Source: an uncultured Gammaproteobacteria bacterium
Lineage (GTDB): Bacteria; Patescibacteriota; Microgenomatia; UBA1406; HO2-37-13b
DNA: 51,446 nucleotides
NCBI GenBank assembly: GCA_964477065.1
Contig: CAYZCU010000001.1
Span: forward strand, 26,042 to 77,487
Direction: 5' to 3'
Shown piece by piece: positions 9,843-17,303 of the stretch (position 1 is the first letter of the stretch; each line of letters starts with the position of its first letter). The position numbers and the translations under genes were made by a program. The notes below the pieces were generated by a model. The model was given only the letters and a program-made list of their open reading frames with translations. It ran no database searches and was not told the DNA's origin.

Positions 9843-10709
9843 CTAACCGCCAAAGAGGGCAACAGAGTACGGACCTCCCCAACCTATCCCAATATCATGC
9901 AACGTGGGATTGATCAAAATAGCCTTGTGTCGAGGGCTGTGCATCCAGCCATCTACGGCTTCTTCGGGGGTGCGAACACGGCACGCGATGATTTCACCAA
10001 CGCCCCCTTGGGTGTATCCTGCCTCCCGAGCTCGATCATCCGGCCACTTGCCCTGTGCATCTTGGTGATTGCAGTGCGCCATAGCTGGGCCCTCTCCCAC
10101 CCACAACGCATGGCTACGGGCTGCCTGTTGCAACGATGTATTCCATCCCACTGGTCCAGCCCCGTTTTCACTTCTGCGCTGGTTGATAAGCGTCAAGGTC
10201 TGCTCTTCCATCTGCTGAGGATTCAATGGCGGTGCAGAGGGCTCTGCAGGGGGTTGAGTCATCTCGGGAGGTCGTTGCGTTGGTGCTCGCGTCGGGCGCT
10301 GGGTTGGTGAGGGCGGTTGTGTCACGGATGCGGTTGGACGACGTGTGACCTGGGGCAAAGAGGTAATGGTCGGCGTCGGCACAGCGGTCACCAATGGCAC
10401 GGGTGTCAACTGCGTATCACTGACAGGAATGTTAAACACATAGGGCGCAGGATACAGTGGATCAGACTCATCAACCGTATCTGTCGGCTGGCGGGATCGA
10501 ACTGCTGATGCCAGCAAGCTGATATTATGGGGAAGGTCTTGGATTGACTCGACGATGCGCGCCGGTGCGTGAGCAACTGATCGTCGAAAGGCCGGTTGAA
10601 CTATCGGAAGTGGTCCAAGAAAGACATAGTTCACCAATCCCCATGACACCATAAACCCAAGCACCTGACCAAGGACGAGCTTCCAATACCGATGCACGAG
10701 GTCTTTCAT
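9843..10709 (-). CDS. membrane-anchored CAP/SCP (PR-1-like, YkwD-like) domain protein with Pro/Thr linker
   Basis: N-terminal TM segment, P/T/Q-rich linker, and a C-terminal CAP signature GWMHSPRHKAILINPTLHDIGIGW. Confidence 0.7.
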   Translation of the reverse strand: MKDLVHRYWKLVLGQVLGFMVSWGLVNYVFLGPLPIVQPAFRRSVAHAPARIVESIQDLPHNISLLASAVRSRQPTDTVDESDPLYPAPYVFNIPVSDTQLTPVPLVTAVPTPTITSLPQVTRRPTASVTQPPSPTQRPTRAPTQRPPEMTQPPAEPSAPPLNPQQMEEQTLTLINQRRSENGAGPVGWNTSLQQAARSHALWVGEGPAMAHCNHQDAQGKWPDDRAREAGYTQGGVGEIIACRVRTPEEAVDGWMHSPRHKAILINPTLHDIGIGWGGPYSVALFGG

Positions 10710-10711
10710 GA

Positions 10712-11245
10712 TTAGTGTTCCTCAATATTAATTATATGTTGAGCCGTATCATGCTTCACCGTCAGGCTATACGTATATTCTTTCAAGGCATCATGATCTT
10801 TCGATTCAATTAATTCGAGACCTTCAACCCCGGACGTATTTTTGAGGTACACAGCGATAGCTTTATCCGATGAACCAATCACCTTGAGGGTATAGAGTGT
10901 CTCTTGCGGAGGGGTGAGGAGGATCCATGTGACAGTCCCCAACATCGCATCTGGCATACTTTCAGAATGGGGAATGTCATTGCGCAGGCCTGTCAGAGTC
11001 GATCCAGATATACGACCTTGACTATCAATGAGTTCAACTCGCTGACCATCAGGAATAGCTATTTTCAAGGTACTCTCCACGGATTGTGGGGCAACGGTTG
11101 GTTGCGGGAGTGGCGTCACAGCTGTGAGCCGTCGGGTAGGTAAGGGTTGGGCGGGCTGTTGTGGTATCAACCTATCTCGGAACATACCAAAGCCTATAAC
11201 ACAGATCATGGATATGAAGAAAAAAAGCGCGGTAACTTTCGTCAT
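10712..11245 (-). CDS. hypothetical membrane-anchored extracytoplasmic protein
   Basis: N-terminal TM segment (ALFFFISMICVIGFGMF) followed by a beta-rich domain. Tightly packed between ApbE and the CAP gene. Confidence 0.45.
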   Translation of the reverse strand: MTKVTALFFFISMICVIGFGMFRDRLIPQQPAQPLPTRRLTAVTPLPQPTVAPQSVESTLKIAIPDGQRVELIDSQGRISGSTLTGLRNDIPHSESMPDAMLGTVTWILLTPPQETLYTLKVIGSSDKAIAVYLKNTSGVEGLELIESKDHDALKEYTYSLTVKHDTAQHIINIEEH

Positions 11246-11266
11246 ACTTCATTATATACAGGTTAC

Positions 11267-12148
11267 CTATGAAAATACCTCTCCCTGCCATCCAGGAGAA
11301 TGAACGACCTGCATATCCTGATTAACGAGAACATATTCGAAATCAAAATGGTCACGAAGGTCATCGGGGGGTATTAAAAATAGGGTTGTTGCAAGAGCAT
11401 CTGCATACATCGCACTCTCTGCCACAACCCACGTCGCACGTATATACTCTGGAGACTGCAACGTATGTGGATCAATAATATGATGTTGCTTTCCCCACGT
11501 TCGCCGATTGCTTCCTGAGCTTGCGATTGCTTGATTGTTCAGCATACATATGCCTATTGCCTGGTCCGGATTTTCAGGATGCTCTAAACCGACACGCAGA
11601 CTGGATGATCCAACATGTTTCATATCCCCACTTCCATTGACCGATATGGACGTGTAACCCTTTTTAGTTAGCAGCTCAATCAACAGATCGACCGCACAGC
11701 CTTTCCCAACAGCGCCAAAATCAATGGCAACGGGGCAGGCAAGCTCTATTTCAGCATCATTGATGATCGTGATGACATCAGTGAGCAGAGGGGCATTTCT
11801 GACAACTGATTTTCTTGTGAGTGAATATGAGGCGTCATATCCCATATCCTCAAGCACCTCAGCGATACATGGATTAAACACTCCATGGGTAATCTGCGAA
11901 AGTTGAAAACATAGATGCACCATCATCATGAATGGCTTCGGGACACTGACACGCCCTTGAGTGTGCCGAAGCTGACTCACAAACGAGTCCTGCTTAAACC
12001 GAGAATAGGTTGCTTCGAAATCATCTAAAAAATCCTCGATCACGTGAGTAAGTGATTCATGCTGTGAAGGAGGACAGGCATCGACATCTATGTCCCATGG
12101 CGAGCCCATCGCGTGATGCGTCATATGAAAACGTTCATCACGAGCCAT
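11267..12148 (-). CDS. apbE: FAD:protein FMN transferase (ApbE family)
   Basis: MGSPWDIDV, AIASSGSNRRTWGKQHHIIDPHT and ADALATTLF are ApbE hallmarks. No obvious signal peptide. Confidence 0.75.
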   Translation of the reverse strand: MARDERFHMTHHAMGSPWDIDVDACPPSQHESLTHVIEDFLDDFEATYSRFKQDSFVSQLRHTQGRVSVPKPFMMMVHLCFQLSQITHGVFNPCIAEVLEDMGYDASYSLTRKSVVRNAPLLTDVITIINDAEIELACPVAIDFGAVGKGCAVDLLIELLTKKGYTSISVNGSGDMKHVGSSSLRVGLEHPENPDQAIGICMLNNQAIASSGSNRRTWGKQHHIIDPHTLQSPEYIRATWVVAESAMYADALATTLFLIPPDDLRDHFDFEYVLVNQDMQVVHSPGWQGEVFS

Positions 12149-12150
12149 AG

Positions 12151-12606
12151 CTATCCTTGAGCTTGTTTGACAATTTGGGCAACAGCATCGTTGAAGCCTT
12201 GTGGCGTCAATGATGAAGCGGCGACTTTTTCAAGTTTCAGGGTGCGAATATCTTTGCCTACGACTTGTGGGGCAAAAGCATCCTTAAAAATTCCTTGGAA
12301 GCGTGCCGTCGTATCGTTAGACGGGACAACCGTCACTTCTGCTGTTACGATAGTATTATTTTTGATCTGCAGTTTGACACCGAGGGATTCTTCACCTTCT
12401 GGAGATTGATAGTGCCCTGTTGAGGTATACGTCCCATCTTTGAGCATAGAATCCACACGTGGTGGTTGTGCTTGGTCACTAGGCAGAGCAGTAATCTGCG
12501 TTGTCACTGCATCCCCCTGTGGCTTTTGTGTTGAGGAGTATTGAAAGACAGCGATACCAATAATTGCAAATGCGACTATAGCGAGCCCGAGTGTTTTAGA
12601 ATTCAT
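12151..12606 (-). CDS. membrane-anchored FMN-binding-domain-like protein (candidate ApbE substrate)
   Basis: N-terminal TM segment. DGTYTSTGHYQSPEGEESLGVKLQIKNNTIVTAEV...LEKVAASSLTPQGFNDAVAQ follows the FMN_bind domain layout. The canonical SGAT flavinylation motif is degenerate (AASS). Confidence 0.5.
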   Translation of the reverse strand: MNSKTLGLAIVAFAIIGIAVFQYSSTQKPQGDAVTTQITALPSDQAQPPRVDSMLKDGTYTSTGHYQSPEGEESLGVKLQIKNNTIVTAEVTVVPSNDTTARFQGIFKDAFAPQVVGKDIRTLKLEKVAASSLTPQGFNDAVAQIVKQAQG

Positions 12607-12635
12607 ATCTGTTTGTAAATGTGTAACAATCGTTC

Positions 12636-12641
12636 TAGAAT
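12636..12641 (+). promoter_or_regulatory. -10 box TAGAAT, 9 nt upstream of ATG 12651
   Basis: TCTAGAATggtttggtcATG; fits the short-leader or leaderless pattern of this window. Confidence 0.4.
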
Positions 12642-12650
12642 GGTTTGGTC

Positions 12651-13526
12651 ATGATAACACAGTTACTGCAACGCTTCAATCTCAAAAGCACGCTTGTTCA
12701 ATGTGCGATCTTATTGAGTATTTTCGCACTTCTTGCTTGTCTCGATCTTGGGAGCTTTGCACTTCAAGGATACACGGGGTTTATGCTGATGATACTTATG
12801 ACCGTTGGGGTATCCCATATTGTCCAAACTCACGCTCCCCTTATCGGCTTCCAAACAGTCAATCTATACATATCATATATGTTGCTCTTTTTGCTTATCC
12901 ACCCGATACATTCCTCACTCTGGCTCATTTTTGCAGGGCTGGTCCTGATTGCACAAAAATATCTCCTTCGACCTGCCATACGCATTTTTAACCCGACCGC
13001 TTTTGCACTTCTGATAACGTATCTCGCAAGCACTATCACGCACGCTCTTGGATGGACAGATACTTTACTCATCTCCTGGTGGGGGACAGATATGATTCAA
13101 AGTGAGATTTTTACGACAGGACTTCTGAGAATAATCATCCCCTCTCTTTTACTCATTGGCTGTGTCTATTTTGTGATGAGCTTTCATAAAGTGCTCCTTG
13201 CATCAACTTTTTTTATGACATTTACCGCTGGTGTTCTTATGCATGATTTGAGCACAACCTTCTCATCCACTGCATCACTTACGTTTATCACCGCATCGTT
13301 TTTTAATGCAATCGCATTTATGACCTGTATCATGATCTGTGAACCCAAAACATCCCCTGCATTTACCAAACATCAAGCACTCATAGGTGTCCTTGGAGGC
13401 GGGCTCCTCTACCTTCTCACACGCACCCCAGCTTCCACATTTGCCATTGCAGATCCGCTGATCACAACAATTCTTCTCGTCAACCTCATCACCTACCCTC
13501 TCAAGAAATATGGCATACTGAAATAA
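12651..13526 (+). CDS. NqrB/RnfD-family-like polytopic membrane protein (stand-alone)
   Basis: Multi-TM protein. IFNPTAFALL and ICEPKTSPAFTKHQALIGVLGG resemble the NPA... and TDPxTSP motifs of NqrB/RnfD. I did not see the SGAT flavinylation site. An alternative TTG start is at 12645. Confidence 0.5.
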   Translation: MITQLLQRFNLKSTLVQCAILLSIFALLACLDLGSFALQGYTGFMLMILMTVGVSHIVQTHAPLIGFQTVNLYISYMLLFLLIHPIHSSLWLIFAGLVLIAQKYLLRPAIRIFNPTAFALLITYLASTITHALGWTDTLLISWWGTDMIQSEIFTTGLLRIIIPSLLLIGCVYFVMSFHKVLLASTFFMTFTAGVLMHDLSTTFSSTASLTFITASFFNAIAFMTCIMICEPKTSPAFTKHQALIGVLGGGLLYLLTRTPASTFAIADPLITTILLVNLITYPLKKYGILK

Positions 13527-14422
13527 TGAATTTTTTTAAGCACCATATGTGGGCAGTCGTCCTCACTGGATTAATCGTGAGCTTCACCTTTCCAGCAATA
13601 GGTATCCTCATCAGCCCATTCCTTCATCCACTCTTTATGTACCTGATGTTTTTGAGTACGTTGACAATTAATGTCCCTCTACTCATCAAAGATGCGCAAC
13701 ACCCACAAAAAAGTTTGTTCGTATTGCTGATTATTCATATCGTTTCTCCACTAATTGTGTTTCTTTGTAAGCCCCTCTTTTCACAGGAGATTTTCCTTGG
13801 GCTTATCATTGCAACAAGCGTGCCAAGTGGGGTATCTGCAATTTTCTTGACACATCTTTTCAAAGGAGATACAACGCGAGCGCTGTTTACCACAAGCCTT
13901 TCAAACATGATTACGCCCTTTGTTGTGCCTTTAAGCATCTATATTTTTGCTCATACTGAAGTTGACGTGCATCCTGTAGGTATGATGGTAACAGCGATTA
14001 AACTCATATTCATCCCTGCAATCTGTGCTCACTATGTCGCCAAAACGTCTTGGAAAGCACGCTTAGAAAAAAATAACACAGAGGTTATGCTTGCACTGTT
14101 GTTGCTCATCATTGTAGGAATTATTGCACCTGTCAGATCATATCTGACGGATAATATATTGTTGACACTCACCTTGTGCGCATATGTTGGAACATTGATC
14201 AGTTTTGATTTTATCTTAGGATTTCGTCTCGGTTCGCACACGTCTGAAAAAATCGCCTACGCAATTACGGCCAGCTTTCGAAGCTTTGCGCTTGCGACAT
14301 TGCTTGCGCTTACGTATTTCAATGGCGTCGTTGCACTTCCTGCAATTACGTATACCATTATGACCAGTCTTCTACTCATTCCTATGCAATGGTTTATTGA
14401 AGGTCAGCACACTGCACGCTGA
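13526..14422 (+). CDS. bile acid:Na+ symporter (BASS/SBF-like) family transporter
   Basis: About 9-10 TM segments. SVPSGVSAIFLTHLFKGDT resembles the BASS signature. TAATG overlap with the upstream gene. Confidence 0.6.
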   Translation: MNFFKHHMWAVVLTGLIVSFTFPAIGILISPFLHPLFMYLMFLSTLTINVPLLIKDAQHPQKSLFVLLIIHIVSPLIVFLCKPLFSQEIFLGLIIATSVPSGVSAIFLTHLFKGDTTRALFTTSLSNMITPFVVPLSIYIFAHTEVDVHPVGMMVTAIKLIFIPAICAHYVAKTSWKARLEKNNTEVMLALLLLIIVGIIAPVRSYLTDNILLTLTLCAYVGTLISFDFILGFRLGSHTSEKIAYAITASFRSFALATLLALTYFNGVVALPAITYTIMTSLLLIPMQWFIEGQHTAR

Positions 14423-14821: not shown

Positions 14822-15544
14822 ATGAAATTGTTTGATCTGATCGTCACCGTAAATACTGGTCTTATTGGAGGAGCAACGCTCATTGGACTTGTGAGTTCGC
14901 CATTTTTTTATTCCACACCGACAGCAGTTGAGGCACCACAGGTAGCACAGAAGCCAGTTACATCAGCAGTTGTTGCAGGAGCATATACCCATATCCTTCC
15001 TACGATGACACCAACCCCGACACCAACTCCACGTATCGTGAGTGATCCAATTCACATTGATATTCCTAACTTGAGCATCTCAACAGACATAGTGCCTGTT
15101 GGCATCACTCCTCAAAATGTGATGGAAGTGCCAAGTGACACAACAAAAATCGGCTGGTTTTCGGGGAGTCCAAAGCCTGGTGAAGAACTGGATCGTGCGT
15201 CGATTTTGACAGGACACTTTGACACAACCAGTGGAGAGCCGGGGATTTTTTATCAGCTTGAGACAATTGAATATGGCGATGAGATCCATATTCGAAGTGT
15301 CGATGGATCGACCTCTGTTTTCACAGTTACTGATGTCGTCAGTCATCCTCTTGAGGATTTTCCACAAGAAATTGTCTATGGAAAAACAGATGGGACGTAT
15401 ATCAAACTTATCACCTGTGATGGAGTTTGGAATCCAGGGGCACATTCGTATTCACAACGGCTTGTTGTGACAGCCAAATTTGACCATATCCTGGATACAG
15501 TTACAACGCAAAGTGACTCTGAGGCTCTACAACCTTTAAACTAG
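14822..15544 (+). CDS. sortase (class E/F-like transpeptidase)
   Basis: N-terminal TM segment, ILTGHFD (catalytic His), IKLITCDG (TLxTC Cys) and RLVVTAKF (Arg). Confidence 0.8.
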   Translation: MKLFDLIVTVNTGLIGGATLIGLVSSPFFYSTPTAVEAPQVAQKPVTSAVVAGAYTHILPTMTPTPTPTPRIVSDPIHIDIPNLSISTDIVPVGITPQNVMEVPSDTTKIGWFSGSPKPGEELDRASILTGHFDTTSGEPGIFYQLETIEYGDEIHIRSVDGSTSVFTVTDVVSHPLEDFPQEIVYGKTDGTYIKLITCDGVWNPGAHSYSQRLVVTAKFDHILDTVTTQSDSEALQPLN

Positions 15545-15588: not shown

Positions 15589-16338
15589 ATGAATGAACCA
15601 CAGGTGCCAGAATTTCAGTCAACAACTCCCTCAACTGGTGAAGGGCATTTTACCCCATTGCCAGAAGCCAAACCCTCATCTGGACGCAAACCATTTCTCA
15701 TTGGATTGACTCTATTGATAGCAATCATTTTGCCTGTCGCAGGATTTTATGTATACACACAGAAACAAACAACGAATAGTCAAGCATCTGTACCGGCTTG
15801 TCACACAGGGGCACCACCTTTGCCTCCAGATCCATCATGCTATACAGGTTCAGCGCCATCGAGTTTAGGAGATAACAACTGGACATCATGTGGATCTCCT
15901 GCAGAAGGAACCTGTAAAAAGAAGAACGGCGCATGTTATGAATGTCGAGACCGATTTGAAGGTCTGCGTATCATTTGTTCCTGTACTGAACCGACTCCAA
16001 CTCCTGAAAAACCAAAAGACTGTGTGAGTCCGCTTACATGTATGGACCCCGCAGAAGCGACAGCGCTTGGTTGTGCCCCATCCTCGGATCTTTCAAATTC
16101 AAATATGTGTTCACGAGATGGAGGTAGTTCACTCAATGGTGTCTGTTGTAAGAAAGAAATACCAACACCATCTCCAACGCCAACACCAACACGAGAGCCA
16201 TCACCAACGCCGACACCAACTCCCACGCCGACGCCAACACCTACCGTCACACCAACACCGACGATTACTCAGGCATGTGTCCTTCCCGTCATAACAGTTA
16301 CCGCCACGTGTGCTACGTGTAGTAGTCCAGCACAATAA
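15589..16338 (+). CDS. Cys-rich surface/secreted protein with (PT)n linker and N-terminal anchor; no sorting signal
   Basis: N-terminal TM segment, many Cys, and a PTPSPTPTPT...PTPTPTPTPTPTVTPTPT run. Ends ...CATCSSPAQ without LPXTG or a TM segment. Confidence 0.6.
   Translation: MNEPQVPEFQSTTPSTGEGHFTPLPEAKPSSGRKPFLIGLTLLIAIILPVAGFYVYTQKQTTNSQASVPACHTGAPPLPPDPSCYTGSAPSSLGDNNWTSCGSPAEGTCKKKNGACYECRDRFEGLRIICSCTEPTPTPEKPKDCVSPLTCMDPAEATALGCAPSSDLSNSNMCSRDGGSSLNGVCCKKEIPTPSPTPTPTREPSPTPTPTPTPTPTPTVTPTPTITQACVLPVITVTATCATCSSPAQ
16159..16272 (+). repeat. in-frame (Pro-Thr)n coding microsatellite-like repeat
   Basis: Tandem ccaacR/ccgacR hexamers encoding PTPTPT. Confidence 0.8.
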
Positions 16339-16340
16339 TC

Positions 16341-17303
16341 ATGAAAGTTTTAAATCAAAACACACAACCAACGACGACAAGCACACCATCAGGACATTCT
16401 TCACGTCGTACAACATTTATTCTCATTGGTATTGCTGTTTTGCTTATCAGTCTTGTGGTCGGACTTCTGCTTTCCCGACAAAAGCAAACAACTGAGAACA
16501 AAGCGAGTGAAGTTGGCCCATCATGTCCACTTGAAGCGTTTACATGTACCTGGAAGAAAGAAACAGGTGTCACATATACATGTACCATCCTTGAAGTTAC
16601 TGCCTCAGGAGCTGTAGAAGTAGCTCACCCAGACGTCAAAGATGGCGCAACATCTGCTGATGGTCTCTGTGCTTTTACCCCACAAGCCAACAAAACATAC
16701 CGCTGTCAAATTCAAGGCACGTTGTTTGAAGGCTGTTCATCGACGGCAACAGCTGATATGACCTGCTCAACGCTTTCACCAACGCCAACACCGACGCCTA
16801 CGGCCACTCCAATGCCGACACCGAATCCAAAATGTTACATCACATCGTGTAATCCACAAACTGCCAATCACTGTACGACGCTTGGACTTCCAAATCATTC
16901 ATGTGTTGATACTGACTTAACAACCGCAGGAACAGATTATCGCTGTGTTTCAAACCCGGCTTGCACGACACCTTCATCAACAGATCCTGCAGCATGCTGG
17001 TGTGCTGTTCCAACACCGACCGTCACACCGACGCCAACGGCAACTCCTACTGTCACCCCAACACCAACCGTCACGCCAACCGTGACGCCGACACCAACTT
17101 CGACCCCAACCGTGACACCAACGCCAACAACAACGCCGAAGCCGACAGATATTATTGTCGTCAACAACACAACAACACCGACTCCAACAGCCGGTGTCAC
17201 CACAACACCAGTGCCAACATTACCTGTTGCAGGCCTTCCACAGGCAACATACTTGATCATATTGGCAGGTATCGTTGTTGTTGTCGTGGGACTGGCACTC
17301 TAA
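16341..17303 (+). CDS. Cys-rich PT-repeat surface protein with LPVAG + C-terminal TM (sortase substrate candidate)
   Basis: N-terminal TM segment, two Cys-rich modules separated by PT runs, and a C-terminal PTLPVAGLPQATYLIILAGIVVVVVGLAL. Confidence 0.65.
   Translation: MKVLNQNTQPTTTSTPSGHSSRRTTFILIGIAVLLISLVVGLLLSRQKQTTENKASEVGPSCPLEAFTCTWKKETGVTYTCTILEVTASGAVEVAHPDVKDGATSADGLCAFTPQANKTYRCQIQGTLFEGCSSTATADMTCSTLSPTPTPTPTATPMPTPNPKCYITSCNPQTANHCTTLGLPNHSCVDTDLTTAGTDYRCVSNPACTTPSSTDPAACWCAVPTPTVTPTPTATPTVTPTPTVTPTVTPTPTSTPTVTPTPTTTPKPTDIIVVNNTTTPTPTAGVTTTPVPTLPVAGLPQATYLIILAGIVVVVVGLAL
17008..17148 (+). repeat. in-frame (Pro-Thr/Val-Thr)n coding repeat
   Basis: PTPTVTPTPTATPTVTPTPTVTPTVTPTPTSTPTVTPTPTTTPKPT, encoded by degenerate hexamer repeats. 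Confidence 0.8.

Follow-up and report, generated by a model that had tools for sequence, protein, structure and literature searches.

The window analyzed here is a 51,446-nucleotide stretch (G000:C1:26042-77487) of an 855-kb assembly, G000, comprising 41 contigs and ~90% complete. It carries a divergent gene cluster whose core is a triad: an ApbE-family flavin adenine dinucleotide (FAD):protein flavin mononucleotide (FMN) transferase, a membrane-anchored protein resembling the FMN_bind subunits NqrC and RnfG, and a stand-alone relative of the membrane subunits NqrB and RnfD. This triad, which is conserved, is a split form of the NQR/RNF-like flavinylation system known from the literature and belongs to a known kind of system. 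It probably represents a three-gene flavin module of bacteria of the Candidate Phyla Radiation (CPR), which would act as a two-flavin wire across the membrane on the design of the published two-subunit Nqr/Rnf-like complex. The homologies, the synteny, an acceptor serine in the FMN_bind-like protein, the ApbE motifs, and the flavin-pocket residues of the RnfD-like protein are all conserved or intact.

Relatives of the window locus belong to Microgenomates-group CPR bacteria (Woesebacteria, Roizmanbacteria, Dojkabacteria, and OLB23). For comparison, 34 related loci and 20 regions taken from a 151-genome sample of the window's class were scored with hidden Markov models (HMMs) built in the present analysis. 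The arrangement in which apbE and the FMN_bind-like gene diverge from a stand-alone RnfD-like gene recurs in 20 Microgenomates/Dojkabacteria-type loci, in one Peribacteria locus, and in two further genomes (G045 and G124); more than 20 CPR species have it. It sits within at least seven unrelated flanking contexts, and the divergent layout around the intergenic spacer is kept in every triad locus. Wherever the FMN_bind-like gene occurs, in the loci or in the sampled genomes, it adjoins apbE; all 12 genomes of the class sample that encode the protein also encode ApbE, with the two genes adjacent. Because the triad recurs in many flanks while the accessory genes are patchy, the functional unit is the triad. 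As a side observation, many metagenome-assembled genome records in the comparison set (L006-L008, L012-L015, L019, L020, L022, and L024) are titled "uncultured Gammaproteobacteria bacterium" despite their CPR-type cluster; their gene content and nearest relatives, Woesebacteria and Roizmanbacteria, indicate that this label is wrong.

ApbE is recognized directly by PF02424, with a score of 153.7 bits against a cut-off of 25.6 and 252 of 266 model positions covered. When the protein is aligned with the solved structures of active ApbEs (1vrm, 5mgy, and 4xgw), the GKG, AxSSG (here AIASSG), HHIIDP, and ADALxT (here ADALAT) motifs are all kept, and H222 and H223 are invariant in an alignment of four cluster ApbEs. 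The His of "HxIDP" corresponds to His257 of Vibrio cholerae ApbE and has a catalytic-motif role (PMC12052999). Judged by alignment, the catalytic motifs are intact. The assembly holds no second ApbE. The window protein has neither a signal peptide nor a lipobox, although a lipoprotein or secretion signal is usual in the family without defining it; its ATG lies 2 nt past the upstream stop codon, and the domains of the cluster ApbEs begin 5-25 residues from the N-terminus.

The presumed substrate of ApbE, the 151-aa protein, belongs to a family of at least 156 members, mostly from CPR bacteria and often named "FMN-binding domain" in JGI annotations. PF04205 is matched by 16 of the 31 homologs in the family alignment (best E 6e-6) and by no protein anywhere in the ~90%-complete assembly. 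The AlphaFold2 (AF2) model reaches a per-residue confidence (pLDDT) above 90 for residues 56-151, which hold an NqrC/RnfG-type domain (~56-151). The Foldseek top 10 includes SaFMN3 domain 2, RnfG, CbFMN4, and NqrC, with entries 8p2a (prob 0.95), 8ahx_G, 8p2b_B, and 3lwx, all at E > 0.01; a search of the PDB with the family profile returned no relative by sequence. The protein is therefore called FMN_bind-like here at the level of family and predicted fold only. Like the FMN_bind proteins of the NqrC/RnfG/PplA type (PF04205), it has an N-terminal anchor (hydropathy 2.9), a beta-beta-beta-alpha...alpha domain, a putative acceptor Ser/Thr close to the C-terminus, and apbE next to it. An anchor is found in every FMN_bind-like partner in the examined clusters.

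The motif at which flavinylation would occur differs from the canonical one. Where D-x-x-[ST]-G-A-[ST] is expected, the window protein reads K-V-A-A-S-S and its family S-G-S-S, and the window protein, unlike the NqrC/RnfG/PplA type, lies under Pfam detection. The family consensus is VSGSSLT, with the variants NGSS and AASS and a few canonical-type sequences (SGAS, GGAS). S132, at the acceptor position, is invariant across the 31 sequences, as are L133 and T134. Published substitutions in the flavinylation motif show that D to A has a minor effect, that G to A and A to V leave ~50% of the flavinylation, and that T to S costs 10-55% (PMC12052999). Given the invariant Ser and this published tolerance at the non-acceptor positions, AASS is still a plausible candidate for an acceptor motif.

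The third member is annotated from a TTG at 12645, which gives 293 aa; the ATG at 12651, giving 291 aa, is probably the real start, since homologs begin "MIT…" and the database copy has 291 aa. Four close relatives were used to build a profile, which extended the family to 131 cluster representatives. In the 88-sequence family alignment, 48 members match PF03116, and one strong relative (P0126, E 5e-54 against the profile of the family) passes the gathering threshold of 27.7 with 33 bits over nearly the whole model. Searched against the PDB, the family profile retrieves RnfD (7zc6_D, E 1.5e-12) and NqrB (7xk3_B, E 5.8e-11). The AF2 model has a pLDDT of 93.4 and a predicted template modeling (TM) score (pTM) of 0.91, and the top 14 Foldseek matches are all RnfD or NqrB chains (prob 1.00, TM up to 0.64), with Amt/Rh/urea channels next in rank. 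The protein is thus RnfD/NqrB-like at the level of family and modeled fold only. An identity as CdsA, raised by a weak partial match (E 0.015) of the four-sequence profile to the PDB, was set aside; deeper profiles and the fold gave RnfD/NqrB.

The two most conserved motifs of this family, "FNP" and "EPKTSP", coincide with a known flavin site. N116 is invariant in 88/88 sequences and P117 in 87/88, and they align with N203-P204 of NqrB (7xk3_B); position 233, aligned with NqrB D346, is Glu in 77/88 and Asp in 10/88, and P234, T236, and P238 are nearly invariant. In V. cholerae NqrB, N203 and D346 are part of the lining of the riboflavin pocket, and riboflavin is lost when both are mutated to Ala (N203A/D346A; PMC9293633). 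The protein shares with NqrB and RnfD (7xk3_B, 7zc6_D, 8rbq_D, and 9eri_D) the same predicted fold and the "NP" and "(D/E)PxT/S" motifs. It differs from them at the loop that carries the covalent Thr (the NqrB T236 region): the profile aligns in two blocks that skip NqrB 215-274 and RnfD 131-188, the covalent-FMN stretch, and a shorter "SWWGxD" loop, with both Trp invariant in 88/88, fills the place. No SGAT-type site for covalent FMN and no NAD-binding domain were found in the protein. Since N116 and E233 align with the residues that NqrB needs for riboflavin binding, the stand-alone protein appears to keep the non-covalent flavin pocket and to have lost the covalent site. The distribution of charges and the AF2 helix map suggest an N-in, C-in topology, with the SWWG loop outside and EPKTSP facing the cytosol. 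The C-terminus is Lys-rich and predicted to be cytosolic; it is the same place where fusion proteins attach an FNR domain, with which the predicted C-in topology is consistent.

NQR/RNF-like clusters have been described mainly from Actinobacteria and CPR bacteria, with an NqrB/RnfD-like domain fused to an NqrF-type NAD-binding domain and accompanied by an FMN-binding subunit and ApbE (Méheust 2021, eLife, PMC8238504). Their operational definition is a PF03116 membrane domain fused to PF00175 (PMC8238504). The membrane domain lacks a flavinylation site (Huang 2024, mSystems, PMC11334425). A multimer model from the same study brings the covalent flavin of the outer subunit up to what looks like a non-covalent flavin site in the membrane subunit (PMC11334425). 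The triad resembles this two-subunit system in the clustering of ApbE with an anchored NqrC/RnfG-like subunit and an NqrB/RnfD-like subunit devoid of a covalent-FMN site, in its occurrence in CPR bacteria, and in the lack of other Nqr/Rnf subunits. It differs in that the membrane subunit stands alone (291-293 aa), without the C-terminal NqrF-type NAD-binding domain, is divergently transcribed where the published genes are colinear, and is grouped apart from the fusions in the tree. No description of this split, stand-alone variant came up in literature searches.

The window's class commonly has the colinear fusion architecture, an FMN_bind-like gene followed by apbE and a gene for a ~500-aa RnfD-FNR protein. 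A maximum-likelihood tree of the RnfD-like domain, midpoint-rooted and with groups defined by gene context, places the triad-type proteins in one group (support 98/95) and the fusions in a separate one (100/100); the triad group is closer to ApbE-less stand-alone forms of CPR bacteria and DPANN archaea than the fusions. Even with this rooting and grouping, the triad-type protein is not a recent fission product of a fusion gene.

The initial annotation of this DNA had called the cluster an orphan, free of other Nqr or Rnf subunits. This agrees with a genome search, in which no further matches to PF03116, PF04205, or PF02508 were found elsewhere in the ~90%-complete, 855-kb assembly. A precedent for the module does exist in the NQR/RNF-like system (PMC8238504, PMC11334425). 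Unlike in Nqr and Rnf, the partner subunits (A and C-F, or RnfA, B, C, and E) were not found in the genome, and ion pumping is not evidenced for the window module. Within the assembled ~90%, the locus is not a fragment of a complete rnf/nqr operon.

In the mechanism that we propose, ApbE would transfer FMN, derived from FAD, onto Ser132 of the anchored FMN_bind-like protein. The flavinylated subunit would dock at the outer face of the RnfD-like protein, with its FMN placed where the FMN of NqrB would be, and the RnfD-like protein would carry a non-covalent flavin in the N116/E233 pocket, providing the link to the cytosolic side. The two flavins would then make up a short wire along which electrons cross the membrane, with a redox partner in the cytosol at one end and an extracellular acceptor, for example a metal ion or other oxidant, at the other. 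With the NAD(P)H-oxidizing FNR domain unfused, the cytosolic partner would act in trans, a stand-alone FNR-type flavoprotein of the genome being a candidate only. For the window module we infer that FMN is attached covalently and that a complex forms, and likewise which way electrons flow and between which donor and acceptor. The wire model is supported by its relatives, because sister clusters have the published fusion architecture and the membrane subunit in the literature likewise lacks a flavinylation site (PMC11334425).

Several findings weigh against the wire, and they are given here together with the alternatives on which they bear. Two of the three proteins evade direct detection: considering matches to E ≤ 1, a Pfam scan of the window proteins returned none for the 151-aa protein and none, PF03116 included, for the 293-aa protein, and NCBIfam adds none for either. 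The FMN_bind and RnfD assignments of the initial annotation are thus borne out by family HMMs, by the PDB profile in the case of RnfD, and by AF2 and Foldseek, but not by the direct scan. For the FMN_bind fold, the Foldseek matches are weak as well (best E 0.011). The putative flavinylation motif is without the Asp at position -6 and has Ser instead of the usual Ala at -1. The oddities listed at the outset, namely AASS in place of SGAT in the FMN_bind-like protein, a missing SGAT site in the RnfD-like protein, whose region does not align with NqrB/RnfD, and an ApbE lacking an evident signal peptide, were all confirmed, and the invariant S132 is the candidate for a conserved flavinylatable residue in homologs.

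The electron-input side presents a further difficulty. The triad has no fused NAD-binding domain that would define a cytosolic electron donor, and neither a reductase domain nor a conserved reductase gene was found in the triad neighborhoods. The only PF00175 protein of the assembly is a 238-aa FNR-type flavoprotein on contig 3 (L005:1423-2139). It has 25% identity to the FNR domain of the fusions, a generic level of likeness, and it occurs in 79 of the 151 class genomes, including relatives without the triad. As a supported detached reductase it was therefore rejected, its alignment being generic and its distribution showing no co-occurrence with the triad; it stays a candidate.

Another difficulty is the location of ApbE. 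In the 20 cluster ApbEs examined, the first 45 residues hold no hydrophobic segment, so that 20/20 are without an export signal, as opposed to a target domain that is anchored or exported; the wire model does not account for where flavinylation would take place. The proposal of "extracytosolic" flavinylation is therefore not straightforward. Cytosolic ApbEs have been reported, but only with targets likewise cytosolic (PMC12052999). The ApbE of Klebsiella pneumoniae, for instance, is cytosolic and flavinylates a soluble fumarate reductase (PMC12052999); the window ApbE resembles it in having no signal peptide and differs in that its presumed target is membrane-anchored, with a domain that is apparently external. 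A joint reading that takes these points together is rather doubtful. According to it, the module would be a minimal two-flavin wire across the membrane of CPR bacteria, in which a stand-alone RnfD-like protein offering a riboflavin-type pocket works with an anchored subunit that is covalently flavinylated, and no reductase domain is dedicated to the pair. ApbE would work from the cytosolic side, so flavinylation would take place before or during export of the C-terminal tail of the target, or else ApbE would have a previously unknown topology. For an organism unable to make FAD, the module might in addition tie the acquisition of flavin to redox chemistry at the surface.

Flavin supply keeps a different role under consideration, the flavin handling that the initial annotation offered as an alternative. 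In the search for flavin biosynthesis called for by the initial annotation, the ~90%-complete assembly gave no match to FAD synthetase/RibF (PF06574) or flavokinase (PF01687), although it encodes flavin users in ApbE, which needs FAD, and in the FNR-type flavoprotein. The organism probably imports FMN or FAD, since no FAD synthetase or flavokinase was found while both cofactors are needed. That flavin must be imported counts against the wire and keeps alive a flavin-salvage or trafficking reading, in which the FMN_bind-like protein would capture host or environmental flavin, the RnfD-like protein, perhaps with the BASS-family transporter encoded next to it, would pass it inward, and a cytosolic ApbE would serve mainly as FAD pyrophosphatase or in FMN handling. 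The absent export signal of ApbE, the relationship of the RnfD-like fold to Amt/urea channels, the conserved riboflavin-type pocket, and the translational coupling of the BASS gene in the window lineage all fit. Salvage is nevertheless unlikely: the invariant acceptor Ser and strict adjacency to apbE speak for a transferase and its substrate, sister clusters have the RnfD-like domain joined to an NAD(P)H-reductase module, a sign of a redox role, and the BASS gene is missing from most triad loci. We know of no RnfD/NqrB homolog that acts as a flavin transporter.

The missing export signal could also mean that ApbE and the FMN_bind-like domain are both cytosolic, the anchor being oriented N-out/C-in, and that the flavinylated protein is an electron-input partner replacing the FNR domain. 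This would explain the missing reductase domain as well as the clade-wide lack of an ApbE signal, and the charge bias of the anchor is indeed weak in several homologs (a single Lys ahead of it and 0-2 positive charges behind). We consider it quite improbable. The Peribacteria homolog has a lipoprotein signal (lipobox LLITGC), and the Ser/Thr/Pro-rich linkers are similar to those of surface proteins encoded in the window. The homologous NqrC and RnfG domains are periplasmic, the published multimer model puts the subunit outside (PMC11334425), and fusion-type clusters hold an FNR domain as well as an FMN_bind-like protein.

The RnfD-like protein might, alternatively, have no functional tie to the ApbE/FMN_bind-like pair and be part of a channel or transporter, here with BASS, that shares only a divergent promoter region with the pair. 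Locus L010 keeps the RnfD-like and BASS genes without an ApbE or FMN_bind-like gene; the whole-genome ApbE search overlooked the remnant in L011, so "no ApbE" in the L010 genome is weak evidence. In L011, ApbE is truncated to a 127-aa remnant (L011:7473-7856), with no FMN_bind-like gene, and 24 of the 151 class genomes have RnfD-like matches but no ApbE. These occurrences, which weigh against the wire, imply that the RnfD-like protein can function without a flavinylated partner. The tree position of the triad type, nearer to ApbE-less stand-alone forms than the fusions, and distant homologs within Cus-type efflux operons or beside other small anchored proteins point the same way. Still, the divergent pairing survives at least seven unrelated flanks in several CPR lineages, the triad-type proteins make up one supported group (98/95), and the flavin-pocket residues are conserved; independence has little probability. 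Least credible of all is that the cluster is a functionless, decaying remnant of a former rnf/nqr operon: other Rnf/Nqr subunits are missing and two window proteins are too divergent for a direct Pfam match, but the open reading frames (ORFs) are intact, the motifs are sharply invariant over 88 homologs, the confidence of the AF2 model is high, more than 20 species share the triad, and the tree separates it cleanly from other forms.

The features of the locus are listed in Table 1. All six ORFs at 9843-14422 are intact, and the minus-strand genes are closely spaced, with intergenic gaps of 2, 21, and 2 nt. Promoter-like hexamers in the spacer point both ways, but the promoter/terminator scan was overall at chance level. 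This layout of a minus-strand set and a divergent pair, the direct Pfam assignments of ApbE, CAP, and BASS, and the coupling of the RnfD-like and BASS genes, in which the BASS ATG overlaps the RnfD-like stop codon as TAATG, are as initially annotated. From the minimal flavin-based membrane module proposed at the same time, the triad core holds by synteny, the invariant Ser, the ApbE motifs, and the pocket, while BASS, CAP, and the beta-rich protein drop out as conserved parts.

Table 1. Genes and sequence features of the flavin module and its accessory genes (positions in the window)
Feature	Position	Strand	Evidence or remark
CAP/SCP-domain protein, anchored, Pro/Thr-rich linker	9843-10709	-	PF00188 E 9.5e-15
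177-aa beta-rich protein, N-terminal anchor	10712-11245	-	ORF; variable accessory slot
ApbE-family FAD:protein FMN transferase, 293 aa	11267-12148	-	PF02424 E 9e-45
FMN_bind-like protein, 151 aa, N-terminal anchor, presumed ApbE substrate	12151-12606	-	Family HMM, AF2, Foldseek
Variant flavinylation motif, codons A129-A130-S131-S132-L133-T134	12205-12222	-	S132 codon 12211-12213, predicted FMN acceptor
Divergent intergenic spacer, 44 bp, between FMN_bind-like/ApbE operon and RnfD-like gene	12607-12650	.	Coordinates
Stand-alone NqrB/RnfD-like protein, 10 helices, 293 aa	12645-13526	+	Family HMM, PDB profile, AF2/Foldseek
N116-P117 ("FNP" motif) of RnfD-like protein	12990-12995	+	Aligns with NqrB N203-P204, riboflavin pocket
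W145-W146 of "SWWGxD" loop, RnfD-like protein	13077-13082	+	At the place of the NqrB/RnfD flavinylation loop
E233-P-K-T-S-P238 motif, RnfD-like protein	13341-13358	+	Aligns with NqrB D346-P-V-S-A-S
BASS-family transporter	13526-14422	+	PF01758 E 5e-11; start overlaps RnfD-like stop

BASS, CAP, and the 177-aa beta-rich protein are lineage-specific accessories outside the core. BASS scores 43.1 bits with PF01758 (cut-off 24.3) and is a full-length homolog of the ASBT structures 4n7w and 3zux (4n7w, E 2e-14 over residues 8-282); it scores far under the PanS and TIGR00841 equivalog cut-offs, which leaves it without a substrate assignment. Only four loci, the window, L006, L010, and L018, have its gene 3′ of the RnfD-like gene, and they group in one small clade (support 96/92). 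CAP (PF00188, 55.9 bits against a cut-off of 21.1) is present in seven loci, all of one syntenic clade, and L010 retains it despite having lost apbE and the FMN_bind-like gene. These distributions, one small clade and one syntenic clade, rule out BASS and CAP as core components. The 177-aa protein has no match in Pfam, NCBIfam, or the PDB, and homologs of it are found in L004 and L011. The slot that it occupies between apbE and the CAP gene holds either this window type, an unrelated Cys-rich protein of ~180 aa (cluster c14), or nothing.

In Woesebacteria-type loci, this slot is taken by the ~180-aa protein, which is conserved and anchored, has ~10 Cys, and is unrelated to the 177-aa protein (L007:6055-6606, L008:6043-6585, L009:5929-6486, and L025:5817-6359). 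Cys-rich surface proteins (clusters c6 and c3) are also encoded 3′ of the RnfD-like gene in eight loci, including the window at 15589-17303. The gene after BASS (14822-15544, cluster c49, also in L018) looks like a sortase gene by sequence ("…LITCDG…") and stands at the head of Pro/Thr-rich surface-protein genes. The assembly further encodes a VKOR homolog and two DsbD-like membrane proteins (C15:16995-17369, C26:1672-2280, and C34:5529-6032), and therefore thiol-redox machinery for its many Cys-rich secreted proteins. A role of the triad in surface disulfide chemistry, an idea prompted by the Cys-rich neighbors, was discarded: with VKOR and two DsbD-like proteins present there is no special need for it, and it found no support.

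Besides the ApbE remnant of L011, two loci show signs of module decay. In L010 (L010:5078-7895), the CAP gene directly adjoins the RnfD-like and BASS genes, and in a Microgenomates OLB23 locus (L025:7734-8646) a frameshift or an assembly error breaks both the RnfD-like gene and the CAP gene into two ORFs apiece. Stand-alone RnfD-like genes also occur in other settings. In Micrarchaeota (DPANN), the gene always follows one for a ~150-aa anchored protein with a conserved "FGDDG…DDGFVxV" motif (L029:7269-8549, L030:7238-8537, L033:2574-3782, L035:6696-8459, and L039:7279-8582). This protein has no Pfam match and no ApbE is encoded nearby; the pair may form another kind of two-component module around the same membrane protein. 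In Lentisphaerae-/Planctomycetota-type genomes, a stand-alone RnfD-like gene lies within a Cus-like metal-efflux operon (L026:1245-11244 and L032:138-4306), with an outer-membrane factor, a YHS/TRASH metal-binding protein, a CusB-like fusion with HMBD, and a large downstream ORF as neighbors.

Extracytosolic flavinylation has been called "strikingly underrepresented" in CPR bacteria by a survey that required Pfam matches and signal peptides (PMC8238504). The triad largely slips both filters, with two window proteins under Pfam detection and an ApbE without a signal peptide. It also poses concrete puzzles in its missing reductase, its retained riboflavin pocket, and its ApbE without an export signal; the conserved pairing of a cytosolic ApbE with an exported target, in particular, raises the concrete question of where ApbE-type flavinylation can happen. 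If active, the triad would be the simplest known relative of Nqr and Rnf, useful for the study of the NqrB/RnfD flavin pocket on its own, and it would count among the few membrane redox devices of ultra-small, respiration-poor, host-dependent bacteria.

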